A stretch of DNA of 64,000 nt from Escherichia coli (GTDB taxonomy: Bacteria; Pseudomonadota; Gammaproteobacteria; Enterobacterales; Enterobacteriaceae). Both the position numbers and the translations under genes were made by a program. The notes below the pieces were generated by a model. That model did not search any database and was not told the origin of the DNA. It saw only the letters and a program-made list of their open reading frames with translations. The stretch lies in NCBI RefSeq assembly GCF_013315695.1, contig NZ_CP054353.1; one strand, 5' to 3'. Shown here piece by piece: positions 8,900 to 56,065 of the stretch. How positions within the stretch are numbered: position 1 is the stretch's first letter; every line of letters starts with the position of its first letter.

Positions 8900-9778
8900 A
8901 TGAAACTGGGATTTATTGGCTTAGGCATTATGGGTACACCGATGGCCATTAATCTGGCACGTGCTGGTCATCAACTGCATGTCACAACCATTGGTCCGGT
9001 TGCTGATGAATTACTGTCACTGGGTGCCGTCAGTGTTGAAACGGCGCGCCAGGTAACGGAAGCATCGGACATCATTTTTATTATGGTGCCGGATACGCCA
9101 CAGGTTGAAGACGTTCTGTTTGGTGAAAATGGTTGTACCAAAGCCTCGCTGAAGGGCAAAACCATTGTTGATATGAGCTCCATTTCCCCGATCGAAACTA
9201 AACGTTTCGCTCGTCAGGTGAATGAACTGGGCGGCGATTATCTCGATGCGCCCGTCTCCGGCGGTGAAATCGGCGCGCGTGAAGGGACGTTGTCGATTAT
9301 GGTTGGCGGTGACGAAGCGGTATTTGAACGTGTTAAACCGCTGTTTGAACTGCTCGGTAAAAATATCACCCTCGTGGGCGGTAACGGCGACGGTCAAACC
9401 TGCAAAGTGGCAAATCAGATTATCGTGGCGCTCAATATTGAAGCGGTTTCTGAAGCCCTGCTATTTGCTTCAAAAGCCGGAGCGGATCCGGTACGTGTGC
9501 GCCAGGCGCTGATGGGCGGCTTTGCTTCCTCACGTATTCTGGAAGTTCACGGTGAGCGCATGATTAAACGCACCTTTAATCCAGGTTTTAAAATTGCGCT
9601 GCACCAGAAAGATCTCAACCTGGCACTGCAAAGTGCGAAAGCACTGGCGCTGAATCTGCCAAACACCGCGACCTGCCAGGAATTGTTTAATACCTGTGCG
9701 GCAAACGGTGGTAGCCAGTTGGATCACTCTGCGTTAGTGCAGGCGCTGGAATTAATGGCTAACCATAAACTGGCCTGA
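8900..9778 (+). CDS. glxR: tartronate semialdehyde reductase
   Basis: 292 aa; N-terminal GxGxxG Rossmann motif (GFIGLGIMG). Confidence 0.85.
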   Translation: MKLGFIGLGIMGTPMAINLARAGHQLHVTTIGPVADELLSLGAVSVETARQVTEASDIIFIMVPDTPQVEDVLFGENGCTKASLKGKTIVDMSSISPIETKRFARQVNELGGDYLDAPVSGGEIGAREGTLSIMVGGDEAVFERVKPLFELLGKNITLVGGNGDGQTCKVANQIIVALNIEAVSEALLFASKAGADPVRVRQALMGGFASSRILEVHGERMIKRTFNPGFKIALHQKDLNLALQSAKALALNLPNTATCQELFNTCAANGGSQLDHSALVQALELMANHKLA

Positions 9779-9947
9779 TACCCGCAATAAAAATGGCCGA
9801 TATCAGAAAATGAATCGGCCAGCAATATTAAAAAAAGAAAGCAGCCAAAGATGTTGCTTCAGTATTAAAAATAATATTTTTATTTTATTTGTTCCTCATA
9901 GCTAGATTAAAAAGACGTTATTCGATACGTGAAATTAAGAGGGATTT

Positions 9948-11402
9948 ATGGAACATCAGAGAAAACTATTCCAGCAACGCGGCTATAGCGAAGATCTATT
10001 GCCGAAAACGCAAAGCCAGCGGACCTGGAAAACATTTAACTATTTTACCTTATGGATGGGTTCGGTTCATAACGTTCCCAATTATGTGATGGTCGGCGGC
10101 TTTTTTATTCTCGGCTTGTCTACCTTTAGTATTATGCTGGCAATTATCCTCAGCGCCTTTTTCATTGCCGCGGTAATGGTATTAAACGGTGCTGCGGGCA
10201 GTAAATACGGTGTGCCTTTTGCCATGATCCTGCGTGCTTCTTACGGCGTACGTGGTGCACTGTTTCCCGGATTATTAAGAGGCGGGATTGCTGCCATTAT
10301 GTGGTTTGGCCTGCAATGTTACGCTGGATCGCTGGCCTGCTTGATCCTGATTGGCAAAATCTGGCCGGGATTTTTAACTCTCGGTGGTGATTTTACCCTG
10401 TTAGGGCTTTCTCTACCGGGTTTAATCACTTTCTTACTCTTCTGGCTGGTGAACGTCGGAATCGGTTTCGGTGGTGGCAAAGTTTTAAATAAATTCACCG
10501 CCATTCTTAACCCGTGCATCTATGTTGTCTTCGGCGGTATGGCGATTTGGGCGATTTCGCTGGTCGGGATCGGTCCAATCTTTGACTACATTCCGGGCGG
10601 TATTCAGAAAGCAGAAAACGGTGGCTTCCTGTTCCTGGTGGTGATTAACGCGGTAGTTGCGGTCTGGGCGGCACCGGCGGTGAGCGCATCCGACTTTACG
10701 CAAAACGCCCACTCGTTTCGTGAGCAGGCGCTGGGGCAAACGCTGGGTTTAGTTGTGGCCTATATTCTGTTTGCGGTCGCCGGGGTATGTATTATTGCCG
10801 GAGCCAGTATTCACTACGGCGCGGACACCTGGAACGTGCTGGATATTGTTCAGCGTTGGGACAGCCTGTTTGCCTCGTTCTTTGCGGTACTGGTTATTCT
10901 GATGACGACTATCTCCACTAACGCCACCGGTAATATTATTCCGGCTGGTTATCAGATAGCCGCTATTGCACCGACGAAACTGACCTATAAAAACGGCGTA
11001 CTGATTGCCAGTATTATCAGCTTGCTGATCTGCCCGTGGAAATTAATGGAAAATCAGGACAGCATTTATCTGTTCCTCGATATTATCGGCGGAATGCTGG
11101 GTCCGGTAATTGGTGTCATGATGGCGCATTATTTTGTGGTGATGCGCGGACAAATTAATCTTGATGAACTGTATACCGCAGCAGGGGATTTCAAATATTA
11201 CGATAACGGCTTTAACCTTACCGCGTTCTCAGTAACTTTGGTCGCCGTTATTTTATCTCTCGGTGGTAAATTTATTCCGTTCATGGAGCCTTTATCACGC
11301 GTTTCATGGTTTGTCGGCGTTATTGTCGCCTTTGCGGCCTACGCCTTATTAAAGAAACGTACTGCAGCAGAAAAAACAGGAGAACAAAAAGTCACAGGTT
11401 AA
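9948..11402 (+). CDS. ybbW: NCS1-family allantoin permease
   Basis: 484 aa polytopic membrane protein; context. Confidence 0.8.
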   Translation: MEHQRKLFQQRGYSEDLLPKTQSQRTWKTFNYFTLWMGSVHNVPNYVMVGGFFILGLSTFSIMLAIILSAFFIAAVMVLNGAAGSKYGVPFAMILRASYGVRGALFPGLLRGGIAAIMWFGLQCYAGSLACLILIGKIWPGFLTLGGDFTLLGLSLPGLITFLLFWLVNVGIGFGGGKVLNKFTAILNPCIYVVFGGMAIWAISLVGIGPIFDYIPGGIQKAENGGFLFLVVINAVVAVWAAPAVSASDFTQNAHSFREQALGQTLGLVVAYILFAVAGVCIIAGASIHYGADTWNVLDIVQRWDSLFASFFAVLVILMTTISTNATGNIIPAGYQIAAIAPTKLTYKNGVLIASIISLLICPWKLMENQDSIYLFLDIIGGMLGPVIGVMMAHYFVVMRGQINLDELYTAAGDFKYYDNGFNLTAFSVTLVAVILSLGGKFIPFMEPLSRVSWFVGVIVAFAAYALLKKRTAAEKTGEQKVTG

Positions 11403-14202: not shown

Positions 14203-15345
14203 ATGAAAATTGTCATTGCGCCAGACTCGTTTAAAGAGAGCTTAAGTGCAGAAAAATGTTGTCAGGCAATTAAAGCCGGGTTTTCGACCCTCTTTCCCGA
14301 TGCGCACTATATCTGTTTGCCGATAGCGGATGGCGGCGAAGGAACGGTGGATGCGATGGTCGCCGCGACGGGCGGCAACATCGTGACGCTTGAAGTCTGC
14401 GGGCCGATGGGCGAAACAGTGAATGCTTTTTATGGCCTTACCGGCGACGGGAAAACGGCGGTGATTGAGATGGCTGCGGCAAGCGGCCTGATGCTGGTCG
14501 CGCCTGAAAAGCGTAATCCGTTGCTGGCCTCCAGTTTTGGTACGGGGGAGTTAATTCGCCATGCGCTGGATAACGGCATTCGCCATATTATTCTCGGCAT
14601 TGGCGGCAGTGCGACGGTCGACGGCGGTATGGGCATGGCGCAGGCGCTCGGTGTGCGTTTCCTTGATGCCGACGGTCAGGTGCTGGCGGCTAACGGCGGC
14701 AATTTAGCGCGCGTGGCAAGCATTGAGATGAATGAATGCGATCCGCGTCTGGCGAACTGTCATATTGAAGTCGCATGTGACGTTGATAACCCGCTGGTAG
14801 GGGCACGCGGCGCGGCGGCGGTGTTTGGCCCGCAAAAAGGGGCAACGCCGGAGATGGTCGAAGAACTGGAACAGGGGCTGCAAAATTACGCCCGTGTTTT
14901 ACAACAGCTAACTGAAATCAACGTCTGCCAGATGGCGGGCGGTGGCGCGGCGGGCGGTATGGGCATTGCGGCGGAGGTATTCCTCAATGCGGATATTAAA
15001 CCGGGTATTGAGATTGTGTTGAATGCGGTCAATCTTGCGCAGGCGGTGCAGGGTGCAGCACTGGTGATCACCGGGGAAGGGCGCATCGATTCGCAAACGG
15101 CAGGTGGTAAAGCGCCGCTGGGCGTGGCGTCGGTGGCGAAGCAGTTTAATGTCCCGGTGATTGGGATTGCTGGCGTATTGGGTGATGGCGTGGAAGTGGT
15201 GCACCAGTACGGCATTGACGCGGTGTTCAGCATTTTGCCACGTCTGGCACCTTTAGCCGAAGTGCTCGCCAGCGGTGAAACCAATCTCTTCAACAGCGCA
15301 CGAAATATTGCCTGCGCCGGTGATGCTGCCAACTTACTGATTTAG
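14203..15345 (+). CDS. glxK: glycerate kinase; last codons and stop lie inside the IS1 left inverted repeat
   Basis: About 380 aa; ORF continues across the IS1 boundary at 15319 (…[10 protein letters not shown]). Confidence 0.75.
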
Positions 15346-15373
15346 TGTATGATGGTGTTTTTGAGGTGCTCCA

Positions 15374-15649
15374 GTGGCTTCTGTTTCTATCAGCTGTCCC
15401 TCCTGTTCAGCTACTGACGGGGTGGTGCGTAACGGCAAAAGCACCGCCGGACATCAGCGCTATCTCTGCTCTCACTGCCGTAAAACATGGCAACTGCAGT
15501 TCACTTACACCGCTTCTCAACCCGGTACGCACCAGAAAATCATTGATATGGCCATGAATGGCGTTGGATGCCGGGCAACAGCCCGCATTATGGGCGTTGG
15601 CCTCAACACGATTTTACGTCACTTAAAAAACTCAGGCCGCAGTCGGTAA
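15374..15649 (+). CDS. insA: IS1 InsA
   Basis: 91 aa zinc-finger/HTH protein, identical in both copies. Confidence 0.9.
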
Positions 15650-16071
15650 CCTCGCGCATACAGCCGGGCAGTGACGTCATCGTCTGCGCGGAAATGGACG
15701 AACAGTGGGGCTATGTCGGGGCTAAATCGCGCCAGCGCTGGCTGTTTTACGCGTATGACAGGCTCCGGAAGACGGTTGTTGCGCACGTATTCGGTGAACG
15801 CACTATGGCGACGCTGGGGCGTCTTATGAGCCTGCTGTCACCCTTTGACGTGGTGATATGGATGACGGATGGCTGGCCGCTGTATGAATCCCGCCTGAAG
15901 GGAAAGCTGCACGTAATCAGCAAGCGATATACGCAGCGAATTGAGCGGCATAACCTGAATCTGAGGCAGCACCTGGCACGGCTGGGACGGAAGTCGCTGT
16001 CGTTCTCAAAATCGGTGGAGCTGCATGACAAAGTCATCGGGCATTATCTGAACATAAAACACTATCAATAA
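15568..16071 (+). CDS. insB: IS1 InsB (transposase C-part, made as InsAB' by -1 frameshift)
   Basis: 167 aa ORF overlapping insA in the -1 frame. Confidence 0.85.
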
Positions 16072-16086
16072 GTTGGAGTCATTACC

Positions 16087-17618
16087 TAGATACCACAGGT
16101 TTCTGGCATGACGATTTTAATAACGCCACGCCGAACGATATTTGCGTGGCAATTCGTAGCGAAGCGGCGGATGCGGGGATCGCGCAGGCGGTTATGCAGC
16201 AGCTTGAAGAGGCGCTAAAACAACTGGCGCAGGGTTCAGGCAGCAGCCAGGCGTTGACGCAGGTGCGTCGCTGGGACAGTGCCTGTCAGAAATTACCCGA
16301 TGCCAGTCTGGCGCTGATTTCAGTGGCTGGTGAGTATGCGGCGGAGCTGGCGAACCAGGCGCTGGATCGCAACCTCAACGTGATGATGTTCTCCGATAAC
16401 GTCACGCTGGAAGATGAAATCCAACTTAAAACCCGCGCGCGGGAAAAAGGCTTGCTGGTGATGGGGCCGGACTGCGGTACATCGATGATTGCCGCCACGC
16501 CGCTGGCTTTTGCTAACGTGATGCCGGAAGGCAACATTGGCGTCATTGGCGCTTCCGGTACCGGGATTCAGGAGCTGTGCTCACAGATTGCGCTGGCAGG
16601 GGAGGGAATTACTCATGCGATTGGCCTTGGCGGGCGCGACCTCAGCCGTGAAGTGGGCGGCATCAGTGCGCTGACGGCGCTGGAAATGCTCAGTGCAGAC
16701 GAGAAAAGCGAAGTGCTGGCATTTGTTTCAAAACCACCTGCCGAAGCTGTGCGTCTGAAAATTGTTAATGCCATGAAAGCAACTGGCAAACCGACGGTGG
16801 CGCTGTTTTTAGGTTATACCCCGGCGGTGGCCCGCGACGAGAATGTCTGGTTTGCCTCCTCGCTGGATGAGGCCGCACGCCTGGCTTGTCTGCTTTCACG
16901 CGTCACTGCGCGACGTAACGCGATAGCGCCTGTCAGCAGCGGATTTATTTGCGGTTTGTATACCGGCGGTACGCTGGCTGCTGAAGCTGCGGGATTACTT
17001 GCCGGACACCTTGGCGTGGAAGCCGACGATACCCATCAACATGGCATGATGCTCGACGCCGACGGACATCAGATCCTCGACCTGGGCGATGATTTTTACA
17101 CCGTCGGGCGTCCCCATCCGATGATCGACCCGACCTTACGCAACCTGTTAATTGCCGATCTCGGCGCTAAACCGCAAGTGCGAGTGTTGCTGCTTGATGT
17201 GGTGATTGGCTTCGGTGCGACCGCCGATCCTGCCGCCTCGCTGGTGAGCGCCTGGCAAAAAGCCTGTGCCGCGCGTTCAGACAATCAACCACTGTATGCC
17301 ATTGCCACGGTGACAGGCACTGAACGTGACCCGCAATGCCGCTCGCAGCAAATCGCCACGCTGGAAGATGCGGGGATCGCGGTAGTGAGTTCGCTACCGG
17401 AAGCCACCTTGCTGGCTGCGGCGTTAATTCATCCGCTCTCGCCTGCCACACAGCAACACACACCGTCATTACTGGAAAACGTCGCCGTGATTAACATCGG
17501 ATTACGCAGCTTTGCGCTGGAGCTACAAAGCGCCAGCAAACCGGTTGTGCATTACCAATGGTCGCCAGTCGCCGGTGGCAATAAAAAACTGGCTCGTTTA
17601 TTAGAACGTTTGCAATAA
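16087..17618 (+). pseudogene. fdrA: fdrA-like acyl-CoA synthetase-family gene, 5' end removed by IS1
   Basis: Frame is open right up to the IS1 end with no start codon and no promoter; the listed ORF starts at an internal GTG (16146). Confidence 0.7.
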
Positions 17619-34037: not shown

Positions 34038-34114
34038 GCGCCCTTAGCTCAGTTGGATAGAGCAACGACCTTCTAAGTCGTGGGCCGCAGGTTCGAATCC
34101 TGCAGGGCGCGCCA
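34038..34114 (+). tRNA. argU: tRNA-Arg (anticodon TCT in CTTCTAAG loop)
   Basis: GCGCCCTTAGCTCAGTTGGATAGAGC…GGTTCGAATCC…GCGCGCCA cloverleaf elements; integrase immediately downstream. Confidence 0.9.
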
Positions 34115-36839: not shown

Positions 36840-37041
36840 AATCAGGCGGTGAAAGTACCAATAAAGGTTTCTACTTTGCTGTCTTTGAATTTCTCAACAA
36901 GCAGATCACGAAATTCGTTAGCCATTTCTTCCTGCACCGCTTCCAGCTGAATAATGCGCAGAACCAGTACAGGACGATCGCCAGTGATAATGCTGAGGCG
37001 TAATTTAAACGGACGTTCTTTCAGACCTTCAAACGGAACGC
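36840..37041 (-). pseudogene. 3' fragment of a prophage early gene, truncated by IS1
   Basis: Minus-strand frame open from the IS1 boundary to a stop at 36840 (…[39 protein letters not shown]); no start codon. Confidence 0.45.
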
Positions 37042-37096
37042 GGTGATGCTGCCAACTTACTGATTTAGTGTATGATGGTGTTTTTGAGGTGCTCCA

Positions 37097-37372
37097 GTGG
37101 CTTCTGTTTCTATCAGCTGTCCCTCCTGTTCAGCTACTGACGGGGTGGTGCGTAACGGCAAAAGCACCGCCGGACATCAGCGCTATCTCTGCTCTCACTG
37201 CCGTAAAACATGGCAACTGCAGTTCACTTACACCGCTTCTCAACCCGGTACGCACCAGAAAATCATTGATATGGCCATGAATGGCGTTGGATGCCGGGCA
37301 ACAGCCCGCATTATGGGCGTTGGCCTCAACACGATTTTACGTCACTTAAAAAACTCAGGCCGCAGTCGGTAA
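37097..37372 (+). CDS. insA: IS1 InsA
   Basis: Identical to 15374..15649. Confidence 0.9.
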
Positions 37373-37794
37373 CCTCGCGCATACAGCCGGGCAGTGACGT
37401 CATCGTCTGCGCGGAAATGGACGAACAGTGGGGCTATGTCGGGGCTAAATCGCGCCAGCGCTGGCTGTTTTACGCGTATGACAGGCTCCGGAAGACGGTT
37501 GTTGCGCACGTATTCGGTGAACGCACTATGGCGACGCTGGGGCGTCTTATGAGCCTGCTGTCACCCTTTGACGTGGTGATATGGATGACGGATGGCTGGC
37601 CGCTGTATGAATCCCGCCTGAAGGGAAAGCTGCACGTAATCAGCAAGCGATATACGCAGCGAATTGAGCGGCATAACCTGAATCTGAGGCAGCACCTGGC
37701 ACGGCTGGGACGGAAGTCGCTGTCGTTCTCAAAATCGGTGGAGCTGCATGACAAAGTCATCGGGCATTATCTGAACATAAAACACTATCAATAA
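37291..37794 (+). CDS. insB: IS1 InsB
   Basis: Identical to 15568..16071. Confidence 0.85.
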
Positions 37795-37850
37795 GTTGGA
37801 GTCATTACCTTCTAATTGATATGCAATTGTTTACTAAAAGTTATTAAAAA

Positions 37851-38007: not shown

Positions 38008-39090
38008 TTAGAACTGATAAACCAGACCTACAGCGACGATGTCGTCGGTATCAATACCAGCTGTTTTGGTAAACTTACTATCGTCAATTAAGTTGATTTT
38101 GTAATCAACAAAAGTGGACATGTTTTTATTAAAGTAGTAAGTAGCACCGACATCGACATACTTGACTAAGTCTCGGTCACCATGAACACCAAGGTCTTTA
38201 CCTTTTGACTGAAGGTAAGCAACAGATGGACGCAGACCGAAGTCAAACTGATATTGTGCTACTGCTTCAAAGTTTTGTGCTTTGTTTGCAATATGGTTAT
38301 TACCAAAAACGGTCATATTCTGAGTTTCAGAATATGTGGTAGCCAGATAGATATTGTTCGCATCATATTTCAGGCCTGCAGCCCATACTTCCGCATTTTT
38401 GCCGGAGGCATTGAATTTGCTCTTACCATAGGCGACCTGACCGTCAGTGCGATCTGATTTAGCATAGGTTGCACCCACGCCGAATCCTTCATACTCATAA
38501 GTAGTGGAGAAACCGAAACCATCACCATTGGCTTCAGTTACGTCAGTGCGGTCATTTTTACCCTGATACTGAGCAGCAAAGTTCAGGCCATCGACCAGAC
38601 CAAAGAAGTCGTTGTTACGATAAGTTGCAACACCAGTAGTGCGACCAGTCATGAACACATCTGTTTGGGTCCAGGTATCACCACCGAATTCTGGCAGGAC
38701 GTCAGTCCACGCACCGATGTCGTATGCTACACCGTAGTTACGGCCGTAATCGATTGAGCCGTAATCACCAAATTTCAGGCCTGCAAATGCAAGACGGGTT
38801 TTGTCTTTGGAAGAACCTTGAGATTCAGCACGGTTGCCTTTGAATTCATATTCCCACTGACCGAAACCAGTCAGTTGATCGTTGATTTGGGTTTCACCTT
38901 TGAAGCCAAGACGGGCATAAGTAGTATCACCATCATCTGCATCATTAGAGGAGAAGTAGTGCTTGGCATTAACTTTCCCGTATAGATCCAGCTTGTTACT
39001 GTCTTTATTATAAATTTCAGCTGCCTGAGCAGACATCGCCATCAGTACTGATGCAGCTACAGCAGAAATTGCCACTGTTAATTTTTTCAT
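38008..39090 (-). CDS. nmpC: prophage-encoded OmpC/OmpF-family porin, apparently intact
   Basis: 360 aa from [23 protein letters not shown] signal peptide; C-terminal …VAVGLVYQF beta-barrel signature. Confidence 0.85.
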
Positions 39091-51517: not shown

Positions 51518-51909
51518 AACATACTGAACTCCGTGCAGCCGTACTGGATGCACTGGAGAAGCATGACACCGGGGCGACGCTTTTTGATGGTCGCCCCGCT
51601 GTTTTTGATGAGGAAGATTTTCCGGCAATTGCCGTTTATCTCACCGGCGCTGAATACACGGGCGAAGAGCTGGACAGCGATACCTGGCAGGCGGAGCTGC
51701 ATATTGAAGTTTTCCTGCCTGCTCAGGTGCCGGATTCAGAGCTGGATTCGTGGATGGAGTCCCGGATTTATCCGGTGATGAGCGATATCCCGGCACTGTC
51801 AGATTTGATCACCAGTATGGTGGCCAGTGGCTATGACTACCGGCGCGACGATGATGCGGGCCTGTGGAGTTCAGCCGATCTGACTTATGTCATTACCTAT
51901 GAAATGTGA
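51514..51909 (+). CDS. U: tail terminator protein U
   Basis: 131 aa. Confidence 0.9.
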
Positions 51910-51916
51910 GGACGCT

Positions 51917-52657
51917 ATGCCTGTACCAAATCCTGTAATGCCGGTGAAAGGTGCCGGGACCACCCTGTGGGTTTATAAGGGGAGCGGTGACCCTTATGCG
52001 AACCCGCTTTCAGACGTTGACTGGTCGCGTCTGGCAAAAGTTAAAGACCTGACGCCCGGCGAACTGACCGCTGAGTCCTATGACGACAGTTATCTCGATG
52101 ATGAGGATGCGGACTGGACTGCGACCGGGCAGGGGCAGAAATCAGCCGGAGATACCAGCTTCACGCTGGCGTGGATGCCCGGAGAGCAGGGGCAGCAGGC
52201 GCTGCTGGCGTGGTTTAATGAAGGTGATACCCGTGCCTATAAAATCCGCTTCCTGAACGGCACGGTCGATGTGTTCCGTGGCTGGGTCAGCAGCATCGGT
52301 AAGGCGGTGACGGCAAAGGAAGTGATCACCCGTACGGTGAAGGTCACCAATGTGGGTCGTCCGTCAATGGCAGAAGAACACAGTACGGTGACGGCGGCAA
52401 CCGGTATGACCGTGACGCCAGCCAGCGCTTCCGTAGTGAAAGGGAAGAGCACCACGCTGACCGTGGCCTTCCAGCCGGAAGGCGCAACCGACAAGAGCTT
52501 CCGTGCGGTGTCAGCGGATAAAACAAAAGCTACCGTGTCGGTCAGTGGTATGACCATCACCGTGAATGGCGTTGCTGCAGGTAAGGTCAACATTCCGGTC
52601 GTATCCGGTAATGGTGAGTTTGCTGCGGTTGCAGAAATTACCGTCACCGCCAGTTAA
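51917..52657 (+). CDS. V: major tail tube protein V
   Basis: 246 aa from [22 protein letters not shown]; C-terminal Ig-like region. Confidence 0.95.
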
Positions 52658-52672
52658 TCCGGAGAGTCAGCG

Positions 52673-53095
52673 ATGTTCCTGAAAACCGAATCATTTGAAC
52701 ATAACGGTGTGACCGTCACGCTTTCTGAACTGTCAGCCCTGCAGCGCATTGAGCATCTCGCCCTGATGAAACGGCAGGCAGAACAGGCGGAGTCAGACAG
52801 CAACCGGAAGTTTACTGTGGAAGACGCCATCAGAACCGGCGCGTTTCTGGTGGCGATGTCCCTGTGGCATAACCATCCGCAGAAGACGCAGATGCCGTCC
52901 ATGAATGAAGCCGTTAAACAGATTGAGCAGGAAGTGCTTACCACCTGGCCCACGGAGGCAATTTCTCATGCTGAAAACGTGGTGTACCGGCTGTCTGGTA
53001 TGTATGAGTTTGTGGTGAATAATGCCCCTGAACAGACAGAGGACGCCGGGCCCGCAGAGCCTGTTTCTGCGGGAAAGTGTTCGACGGTGAGCTGA
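52673..53095 (+). CDS. G: tail assembly chaperone G
   Basis: 140 aa; ends just after slippery heptamer GGGAAAG (53071..53077). Confidence 0.9.
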   Translation: MFLKTESFEHNGVTVTLSELSALQRIEHLALMKRQAEQAESDSNRKFTVEDAIRTGAFLVAMSLWHNHPQKTQMPSMNEAVKQIEQEVLTTWPTEAISHAENVVYRLSGMYEFVVNNAPEQTEDAGPAEPVSAGKCSTVS

Positions 53096-53511
53096 GTTTT
53101 GCCCTGAAACTGGCGCGTGAGATGGGGCGACCCGACTGGCGTGCCATGCTTGCCGGGATGTCATCCACGGAGTATGCCGACTGGCACCGCTTTTACAGTA
53201 CCCATTATTTTCATGATGTTCTGCTGGATATGCACTTTTCCGGGCTGACGTACACCGTGCTCAGCCTGTTTTTCAGCGATCCGGATATGCATCCGCTGGA
53301 TTTCAGTCTGCTGAACCGGCGCGAGGCTGACGAAGAGCCTGAAGATGATGTGCTGATGCAGAAAGCGGCAGGGCTTGCCGGAGGTGTCCGCTTTGGCCCG
53401 GACGGGAATGAAGTTATCCCCGCTTCCCCGGATGTGGCGGACATGACGGAGGATGACGTAATGCTGATGACAGTATCAGAAGGGATCGCAGGAGGAGTCC
53501 GGTATGGCTGA
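53077..53511 (+). CDS. T: T segment of the G-T tail assembly chaperone, expressed by programmed -1 frameshift from G
   Basis: ORF in the -1 frame begins at the slippery site and runs to the start of H. Confidence 0.85.
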   Translation: MFDGELSFALKLAREMGRPDWRAMLAGMSSTEYADWHRFYSTHYFHDVLLDMHFSGLTYTVLSLFFSDPDMHPLDFSLLNRREADEEPEDDVLMQKAAGLAGGVRFGPDGNEVIPASPDVADMTEDDVMLMTVSEGIAGGVRYG

Positions 53512-56065
53512 ACCGGTAGGCGATCTGGTCGTTGATTTGAGTCTGGATGCGGCCAGATTTGACGAGCAGATGGCCAGAGTCAGGCGTCATTTTTCCGGTA
53601 CGGAAAGTGATGCGAAAAAAACAGCGGCAGTCGTTGAACAGTCGCTGAGCCGACAGGCGCTGGCTGCACAGAAAGCGGGGATTTCCGTCGGGCAGTATAA
53701 AGCCGCCATGCGTATGCTGCCTGCACAGTTCACCGACGTGGCCACGCAGCTTGCCGGCGGGCAAAGTCCGTGGCTGATCCTGCTGCAACAGGGGGGGCAG
53801 GTGAAGGACTCCTTCGGCGGGATGATCCCCATGTTCAGGGGGCTTGCCGGTGCGATCACCCTGCCGATGGTGGGGGCCACCTCGCTGGCGGTGGCGACCG
53901 GTGCGCTGGCGTATGCCTGGTATCAGGGCAACTCAACCCTGTCCGATTTCAACAAAACGCTGGTCCTTTCCGGCAATCAGGCGGGACTGACGGCAGATCG
54001 TATGCTGGTCCTGTCCAGAGCCGGGCAGGCGGCAGGGCTGACGTTTAACCAGACCAGCGAGTCACTCAGCGCACTGGTTAAGGCGGGGGTAAGCGGTGAG
54101 GCTCAGATTGCGTCCATCAGCCAGAGTGTGGCGCGTTTCTCCTCTGCATCCGGCGTGGAGGTGGACAAGGTCGCTGAAGCCTTCGGGAAGCTGACCACAG
54201 ACCCGACGTCGGGGCTGACGGCGATGGCACGCCAGTTCCATAACGTGACGGCGGAGCAGATTGCGTATGTTGCTCAGTTGCAGCGTTCCGGCGATGAAGC
54301 CGGGGCATTGCAGGCGGCGAACGAGGCCGCAACGAAAGGGTTTGATGACCAGACCCGCCGCCTGAAAGAGAACATGGGCACGCTGGAGACCTGGGCAGAC
54401 AGGACAGCGCGGGCATTCAAATCCATGTGGGATGCGGTGCTGGATATTGGTCGTCCTGATACCGCGCAGGAGATGCTGATTAAGGCAGAGGCTGCGTTTA
54501 AGAAAGCAGACGACATCTGGAATCTGCGCAAGGATGATTATTTTGTTAACGATGAAGCGCGGGCGCGTTACTGGGATGATCGTGAAAAGGCCCGTCTTGC
54601 GCTTGAAGCCGCCCGAAAGAAGGCTGAGCAGCAGACTCAACAGGACAAAAATGCGCAGCAGCAGAGCGATACCGAAGCGTCACGGCTGAAATATACCGAA
54701 GAGGCGCAGAAGGCTTACGAACGGCTGCAGACGCCGCTGGAGAAATATACCGCCCGTCAGGAAGAACTGAACAAGGCACTGAAAGACGGGAAAATCCTGC
54801 AGGCGGATTACAACACGCTGATGGCGGCGGCGAAAAAGGATTATGAAGCGACGCTGAAAAAGCCGAAACAGTCCGGCGTGAAGGTGTCTGCGGGCGATCG
54901 TCAGGAAGACAGTGCTCATGCTGCCCTGCTGACGCTTCAGGCAGAACTCCGGACGCTGGAGAAGCATGCCGGAGCAAATGAGAAAATCAGCCAGCAGCGC
55001 CGGGATTTGTGGAAGGCGGAGAGTCAGTTCGCGGTACTGGAGGAGGCGGCGCAACGTCGCCAGCTGTCTGCACAGGAGAAATCCCTGCTGGCGCATAAAG
55101 ATGAGACGCTGGAGTACAAACGCCAGCTGGCTGCACTTGGCGACAAGGTTACGTATCAGGAGCGCCTGAACGCGCTGGCGCAGCAGGCGGATAAATTCGC
55201 ACAGCAGCAACGGGCAAAACGGGCCGCCATTGATGCGAAAAGCCGGGGGCTGACTGACCGGCAGGCAGAACGGGAAGCCACGGAACAGCGCCTGAAGGAA
55301 CAGTATGGCGATAATCCGCTGGCGCTGAATAACGTCATGTCAGAGCAGAAAAAGACCTGGGCGGCTGAAGACCAGCTTCGCGGGAACTGGATGGCAGGCC
55401 TGAAGTCCGGCTGGAGTGAGTGGGAAGAGAGCGCCACGGACAGTATGTCGCAGGTAAAAAGTGCAGCCACGCAGACCTTTGATGGTATTGCACAGAATAT
55501 GGCGGCGATGCTGACCGGCAGTGAGCAGAACTGGCGCAGCTTCACCCGTTCCGTGCTGTCCATGATGACAGAAATTCTGCTTAAGCAGGCAATGGTGGGG
55601 ATTGTCGGGAGTATCGGCAGCGCCATTGGCGGGGCTGTTGGTGGCGGCGCATCCGCGTCAGGCGGTACAGCCATTCAGGCCGCTGCGGCGAAATTCCATT
55701 TTGCAACCGGAGGATTTACGGGAACCGGCGGCAAATATGAGCCAGCGGGGATTGTTCACCGTGGTGAGTTTGTCTTCACGAAGGAGGCAACCAGCCGGAT
55801 TGGCGTGGGGAATCTTTACCGGCTGATGCGCGGCTATGCCACCGGCGGTTATGTCGGTACACCGGGCAGCATGGCAGACAGCCGGTCGCAGGCGTCCGGG
55901 ACGTTTGAGCAGAATAACCATGTGGTGATTAACAACGACGGCACGAACGGGCAGATAGGTCCGGCTGCTCTGAAGGCGGTGTATGACATGGCCCGCAAGG
56001 GTGCCCGTGATGAAATTCAGACACAGATGCGTGATGGTGGCCTGTTCTCCGGAGGTGGACGATGA
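53504..56065 (+). CDS. H: tail tape measure protein H
   Basis: 853 aa, coiled-coil rich, Gly-rich C-terminal region. Confidence 0.95.
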   Translation: MAEPVGDLVVDLSLDAARFDEQMARVRRHFSGTESDAKKTAAVVEQSLSRQALAAQKAGISVGQYKAAMRMLPAQFTDVATQLAGGQSPWLILLQQGGQVKDSFGGMIPMFRGLAGAITLPMVGATSLAVATGALAYAWYQGNSTLSDFNKTLVLSGNQAGLTADRMLVLSRAGQAAGLTFNQTSESLSALVKAGVSGEAQIASISQSVARFSSASGVEVDKVAEAFGKLTTDPTSGLTAMARQFHNVTAEQIAYVAQLQRSGDEAGALQAANEAATKGFDDQTRRLKENMGTLETWADRTARAFKSMWDAVLDIGRPDTAQEMLIKAEAAFKKADDIWNLRKDDYFVNDEARARYWDDREKARLALEAARKKAEQQTQQDKNAQQQSDTEASRLKYTEEAQKAYERLQTPLEKYTARQEELNKALKDGKILQADYNTLMAAAKKDYEATLKKPKQSGVKVSAGDRQEDSAHAALLTLQAELRTLEKHAGANEKISQQRRDLWKAESQFAVLEEAAQRRQLSAQEKSLLAHKDETLEYKRQLAALGDKVTYQERLNALAQQADKFAQQQRAKRAAIDAKSRGLTDRQAEREATEQRLKEQYGDNPLALNNVMSEQKKTWAAEDQLRGNWMAGLKSGWSEWEESATDSMSQVKSAATQTFDGIAQNMAAMLTGSEQNWRSFTRSVLSMMTEILLKQAMVGIVGSIGSAIGGAVGGGASASGGTAIQAAAAKFHFATGGFTGTGGKYEPAGIVHRGEFVFTKEATSRIGVGNLYRLMRGYATGGYVGTPGSMADSRSQASGTFEQNNHVVINNDGTNGQIGPAALKAVYDMARKGARDEIQTQMRDGGLFSGGGR

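Follow-up and report, generated by a model that had tools for sequence, protein, structure and literature searches.

A lambda-type G-T frameshift site between the tail tube and tape measure genes of an Escherichia coli prophage

Does the heptanucleotide GGGAAAG near the end of a tail gene in an Escherichia coli prophage direct ribosomes into a second reading frame, as its counterpart does in phage lambda, or does it lie by chance where two separately expressed genes meet? The window analysed here is the whole stretch of 64,000 nucleotides taken from contig NZ_CP054353.1 (assembly GCF_013315695.1), and the genes concerned all lie on its + strand. Two overlapping open reading frames are found between gene V, encoding the major tail tube protein (51917-52657; Pfam Phage_TTP_12, E 1.1e-68, plus Big_2), and gene H, encoding the tape measure protein (53504-56065; Pfam tape-measure families), which has its own Shine-Dalgarno (SD) sequence, AGGAGGAG. 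The upstream frame of the pair is gene G (52673-53095), encoding the tail assembly chaperone gpG as the zero-frame product; it has 140 codons from the ATG at 52673 to a TGA at 53093-53095, and direct reading of the sequence places an SD-like GGAGAG at 52661-52666, 6 nt 5' of the ATG. The downstream frame, T (53077-53511), is in the -1 phase relative to G and corresponds to the C-terminal half of the gpGT fusion. The -1 frame has no stop between 53032 and a TGA at 53509-53511 and overlaps the H gene, from its ATG at 53504, by 8 nt. Both the G frame and the -1 frame are open between 53032 and 53095, and this zone is the sole place where a productive shift can occur. With regard to gene V, the mechanically called open reading frame starts at an ATG at 51887 (256 aa), 30 nt 5' of the start used for V in lambda, at 51917 (246 aa); the longer form is given in the HK630 record and the shorter in the lambda RefSeq and in the PGAP annotation.

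The heptamer occupies 53071-53077. The local codons of the G frame are GCG GGA AAG TGT TCG ACG GTG AGC TGA and base 53071 is the third codon position of G, so the heptamer is phased G GGA AAG, i.e. as a slippery X XXY YYZ site for a -1 ribosomal slip, in phase with the upstream frame and within the G/T overlap. A sequence-only reading of this DNA had placed GGGAAAG at the same position, and computation of the phase bears out the register. Its statement that the site lies eight codons before the G stop was looser, being right for the first G of the heptamer, which is in the eighth codon; the codons on which slippage takes place, GGA and AAG, are the seventh and sixth. The same reading had the -1 frame open to the start of H, and the frame does extend that far, reaching 53511, 8 nt past the start of the H ATG. 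The heptamer by itself is within what chance allows, and it is the context that carries the significance. Both strands counted, GGGAAAG is present 13 times in the window, where dinucleotide-preserving shuffles give 7.56 +/- 2.57, and at least 13 copies were seen in 3 of 100 shuffles. Only one of the 13 copies, that at 53071, joins a long upstream zero-frame open reading frame (138 codons) to a stop seven codons 3' and a -1 extension of 138 codons past that stop.

The relation of this region to lambda is one of identity. Over 839 nt, beginning with the start codon of G and ending with the stop codon of T (52673-53511), the DNA is 100% identical to positions 9711-10549 of lambda (J02459/NC_001416), and the heptamer is therefore lambda 10109-10115. 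The G protein is identical to UniProt G_LAMBD and matches Pfam PF06894 Phage_TAC_2 ("lambda tail assembly chaperone protein G") with an E value of 9.2e-62 over positions 1-125 of the 126 in the profile. The open reading frame homologous to T, which matches PF06223 Phage_tail_T (E 2.1e-14), lies in the -1 frame, and the Pfam families together give the canonical order V-G-T-H. To derive the fusion protein, G was translated as far as AAG (53075-53077) and base 53077 was then used a second time, to begin the following codon, i.e. join(52673..53077, 53077..53511). The predicted product of 279 aa, with the junction peptide PVSAGKVFDGELSF for a slip at the heptamer, agrees at every residue with UniProt P03735 (GT_LAMBD, "Tail assembly protein GT"). 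The earlier suggestion that the locus reproduces the lambda G-T frameshift is thus upheld by the DNA, the fusion protein, the Pfam families and gene order, and by a literature that names the same site. The site in the window is the lambda G/T programmed -1 frameshift signal, which is already known. A sequence search of the PDB with the GT fusion gave no match to any solved structure. Among database records, that of HK630 has a CDS called "tail assembly protein GT" with the coordinates of T alone, and the true 279-aa fusion is given in few records only (phage O276 and UniProt P03735).

The -1 frameshift of the lambda G/GT tail chaperone was reportedly characterised by Levin, Hendrix and Casjens in 1993, who are said to have put the shift at about 4%, and by Xu, Hendrix and Duda in 2004, 2013 and 2014. 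Judging from the identity of the sequences, the site would work as it does in lambda whenever the prophage mRNA is translated. Ribosomes would begin at the G ATG (52673), and most would decode G GGA AAG in frame and end at the TGA at 53093, giving the 140-aa gpG. A few per cent would slip back by one base with tRNA-Gly on GGA and tRNA-Lys on AAG, the two tRNAs would re-pair with GGG and AAA, and reading of the T frame as far as 53511 would give the 279-aa gpGT fusion. A constant rate of slippage would fix the G:GT ratio at roughly 30:1, the G parts would bind the tape measure protein H, the T part would recruit the tail tube protein V, and neither chaperone would be found in the virion. The slip rate, the ratio and the roles of the chaperones are taken from the literature, while the sequence, the phase, the layout of the frames, the identity with lambda and the deep conservation come from the present analysis. 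In the published work, the slippery sequence of lambda G/GT is given as GGGAAAG (Table 1), with the zero frame kept in about 96% of cases (PMC3296357). The level of frameshifting in lambda responds to thiolation of U34 of tRNA-Lys, and phage yield is modulated as a result (PMC3296357; PMC7618472). Lambda tails are assembled only if both products are made, and the ratio of G to GT, about 30:1, is crucial to the process; the G part of each protein attaches it to the tape measure protein, the T part binds V, and both are absent from the virion (PMC5009743).

The term "conserved" had also been applied to the site in the sequence-only reading, and it proved well founded. Relatives were gathered from two IMG/VR scans and from the annotated records of N15, phi80, mEp237, mEp043, cdtI, mEp460, Fels-1, Gifsy-1 and two Stx phages. 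Of 134 distinct G-to-T sequences, with identities of the G protein down to 28%, 133 had an in-phase N NNA AAG inside the dual-open zone. The heptamers in these 133 sequences were GGGAAAG (61), GGAAAAG (70) and AAAAAAG (2), and the dual-open zone ranged from 7 to 27 codons in length (median 16). The frequency of in-phase N NNA AAG elsewhere in those G genes is 0.0064 per codon, so that about 10% of zones (~0.10 per zone) would be expected to hold one by chance. The only sequence without a site in the zone was L062, in which the G gene is interrupted (1501-1922; G frame broken, 124 codons, no usable site), and this interruption together with the loss of a usable site makes decay of the prophage, or a fault in the assembly, the probable cause. 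The distance from the heptamer to the G stop is fixed at seven codons, as in the window, or at three in the clade of cdtI, Fels-1 and Gifsy-1. Gene 14/15 of N15 and the corresponding genes of phi80, mEp237, mEp043, cdtI, mEp460, Fels-1 and Gifsy-1 share with the window the layout of two open reading frames flanked by the genes for the tail tube and the tape measure, and also an in-phase A AAG at the homologous position. They differ in having G GAA AAG rather than G GGA AAG, and their G proteins are only 28-47% identical. The lysine of the heptamer is invariant in the alignment of the G proteins (30-46% identity to the first sequence, N15), whereas the surrounding C-terminal tail is poorly conserved. 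The record for N15 itself labels the homologous heptamer "slippery sequence for -1 translational frameshift", and that for Gifsy-1 also notes a frameshift. The records for N15 (L083, 1468-1485) and mEp460 (L088, 1461-1484) place a rho-independent terminator after the tail tube gene and ahead of the G homologue. The spacer between V and G in the window is only 15 nt and leaves no room for such a terminator, and the dosage of G relative to V may therefore be set differently in N15 and mEp460.

The pattern of variability around the heptamer carries a signature of the change of frame. Variability was taken as the entropy per column of 78 distinct 131-nt segments centred on the heptamer. Upstream of it the wobble position of the G frame is the most variable, with 1.56 bits against 0.81-0.84 at the other two positions, while downstream of the G stop it is the wobble position of the T frame, with 0.85 bits against 0.15-0.22. 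The heptamer thus marks the point at which wobble variability passes from the frame of G to that of T. The G-frame wobble columns of the heptamer itself have 0.17, 0 and 0 bits, compared with 1.3-1.6 at the wobble positions just upstream. The wobble G of AAG is never exchanged for the synonymous A, which implies a constraint beyond protein coding.

Whether sequences outside the heptamer stimulate the slip was also considered. The lambda G-T shift has been described as requiring no stimulatory signals (PMC5009743, section 6), and in the window no SD-like stimulator was found within 20 nt 5' of the heptamer. On the 3' side, the nucleotides next to the heptamer are much more conserved than those on the 5' side, and a candidate RNA structure begins 7 nt past it on the + strand (53085-53155), with helix 1 formed by 53085-53092 and 53148-53155 and helix 3 by 53112-53126 and 53131-53145. 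Compared with dinucleotide shuffles, folding is more favourable both for the first 93 nt past the heptamer (z = -2.25) and for the first 130 nt (z = -3.0). Pairing in helix 1 reaches 96.7% over 79 distinct sequences, with one covarying pair, 46-114 (A-U in 48, G-C in 27 and C-G in 2), and the covariation score with these 79 sequences was above those of all 500 shuffles and of the slid controls; some covariation was also seen with a set of 18 sequences. The 79 sequences gave no support to helix 2 or to the tip of helix 3. When synonymous codons were randomised with the T peptide kept, the z value was -1.43 for the window (44 of 500) and ranged from +0.11 to -2.0 in 11 relatives. Much of the pairing is due to the conserved peptide, in which LAR (CUG GCG CGU) is set against WRAM (UGG CGC GCC AUG). 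The T-frame wobble positions had 0.66 bits in helices 1 and 3 against 1.15 bits where unpaired (one-sided p = 0.04), a marginal difference from a small sample, due in part to non-degenerate codons, since two of the invariant paired columns belong to Trp or Met codons. In the relative L026 (~1969-1999) an in-frame deletion of 45 nt in T removes the 3' half of the structure and leaves a T frame of 124, not 139, codons past the G stop. A two-helix RNA structure at 53085-53155, conserved from lambda to N15, phi80 and the Stx phages, could tune the slip rate and the G:GT ratio, although we regard this as rather unlikely. If it were true, the lambda-type G-T frameshift would not be free of stimulators, as reviews state it to be.

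The genomic setting of the cassette differs from that in lambda. The 5' part of the window is E. coli chromosome, with ybbP, the allantoin cluster, purK, sfm and fimZ, followed by the tRNA-Arg gene argU (34038-34114). From there to the end of the window runs a lambda-like prophage at the argU/DLP12 attachment site, with lysis genes of the DLP12 type and without an immunity, replication or Q region; the common ground with lambda consists of the 839 nt, the heptamer with its phase and stop spacing, the fusion protein P03735 and the order V-G-T-H. The structural arm is ~97-98% identical to lambda-like phages, the closest being PhiR49_1, and the prophage is 99.6% identical to one in strain AF3 (L173). 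A copy of IS1 lies inside the prophage at 37041-37810, and at the junction 37809/37810 a segment of 9.3 kb of the AF3 prophage (L173, 470-9809) is missing. Carried on this segment are the cI-like repressor ymfK, ymfT, ymfL, the genes for replication, RusA, a methylase, genes of the KilA-N and DUF968 kinds, and the antiterminator gene quuD (Q) except for its last 10 nt. With the repressor, replication and quuD genes gone, the prophage is defective for immunity, replication and late-gene activation, and the deletion of quuD leaves the late operon, including G and T, without its cognate Q in cis. A prophage porin gene annotated as OmpC (NmpC-like) lies on the - strand at ~38008-39090, between the IS1 and the lysis genes essD/rrrD (positions derived from L174, 31009-32091). 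A second IS1, identical to the prophage copy at 769 of 769 positions, is found in the allantoin cluster at 15318-16087. By comparison with strain MSB1_4I (L174, 5364-9087), allE, allC, allD and the first ~136 nt of fdrA are missing beside it, a loss that, from the sequence, looks like an IS1-mediated adjacent deletion.

Both IS1 copies contain the -1 frameshift motif A AAA AAC (TTAAAAAACTC), at 15625-15631 and 37348-37354, flagged "programmed frameshift" by PGAP. Since each IS1 bears its own motif, the window holds two unrelated kinds of programmed -1 frameshift. The InsAB' frameshift of IS1 resembles that of G-T in being a -1 shift of low efficiency that fuses two overlapping open reading frames; it differs in its heptamer and in producing an unrelated transposase, and it controls the frequency of transposition rather than the stoichiometry of virion assembly. 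The A AAG of the G-T site, like that of the dnaX site of E. coli, is decoded by the single tRNA-Lys of this organism. The dnaX site (A AAA AAG), at which tau and gamma are made, is likewise a -1 slip at a heptamer ending in A AAG and yields two products from one gene (PMC5009743). It differs in that the shift reaches ~50% and needs an SD-like element 5' of the heptamer and a strong stem-loop 3' of it, whereas the lambda G-T shift is a matter of a few per cent.

Two other accounts of the T frame have to be set against a ribosomal slip. T could be a separate gene read from its own GTG at 53077, with the heptamer incidental, as in the lambda RefSeq, the PGAP annotations and the majority of records, which list T as a separate CDS from the GTG without slippage; a GTG does stand exactly at the end of the heptamer and opens a frame of 144 aa. 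That GTG is not preceded by a properly spaced SD ("gcgggaaa GTG"), whereas both G and H are, and in all relatives with a G identity of 70% or less it is replaced by GCG, GTC, GCC or GCA. In these same relatives the first start codon in the T frame lies 11-53 nt past the G stop, at a variable position, and yet the T-frame peptide is conserved from the heptamer onwards (GKVFDGELSFALKLAREM in the window and GKALASELKFAMKLAREF in N15). The onset of the T-frame wobble signature at the heptamer also speaks against a separate gene, which we consider very improbable. The fusion might instead arise by slippage of RNA polymerase on the run of A residues, of which there are three at the site and six (AAAAAA) in two Stx-phage relatives. 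A run of three A residues is much shorter than those known to support polymerase slippage, and the element conserved is a phased N NNA AAG that includes the wobble G of AAG, as fits re-pairing of tRNAs; this account is hardly credible. The literature is against both, the first in that T expression is reported solely as the GT fusion (PMC3296357, PMC5009743) and the second in that the level of frameshifting depends on the modification of U34 of tRNA-Lys (PMC3296357). No feature of the DNA speaks against a ribosomal slip, and the site is almost certainly the signal for programmed -1 ribosomal frameshifting between G and T, the chaperone genes of lambda tail assembly.

A different doubt, which is compatible with the identity of the frameshift signal, concerns its use: the cassette may be an intact but silent relic, from which neither G nor GT is made in this host. 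The 9.3-kb loss beside IS1 relative to AF3 points this way, as it removes the repressor, the replication genes, RusA and nearly all of quuD, and no other Q-like gene is annotated from argU to cos in a genome that matches at 100%. The structural open reading frames from Nu1 to J are on the other hand all intact in the window, and G-T has remained identical to lambda. If the cell harbours another prophage whose Q has the right specificity, that Q could activate the operon in trans, and most E. coli genomes hold several G-T copies, with a median of two per genome. A relic from which nothing is made is a possibility of some weight, with the balance tilted against it. The gene content suggests that the late operon is probably silent unless switched on in trans by another prophage.

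For this host, the loss of the Q, repressor and replication genes makes expression of G and GT doubtful, to judge from the sequence, and a prophage without its own late-gene activator illustrates that a perfect signal is no proof that the function operates in the genome that carries it. For the family at large, T is still annotated as a free-standing gene from a non-conserved GTG in the lambda RefSeq and, by PGAP, in thousands of E. coli genomes, with the result that automated proteomes miss the 279-aa GT protein. The frameshift so overlooked, that of G-T, is a classic case in which a ribosomal slip sets the proportion in which a virus makes two assembly proteins.
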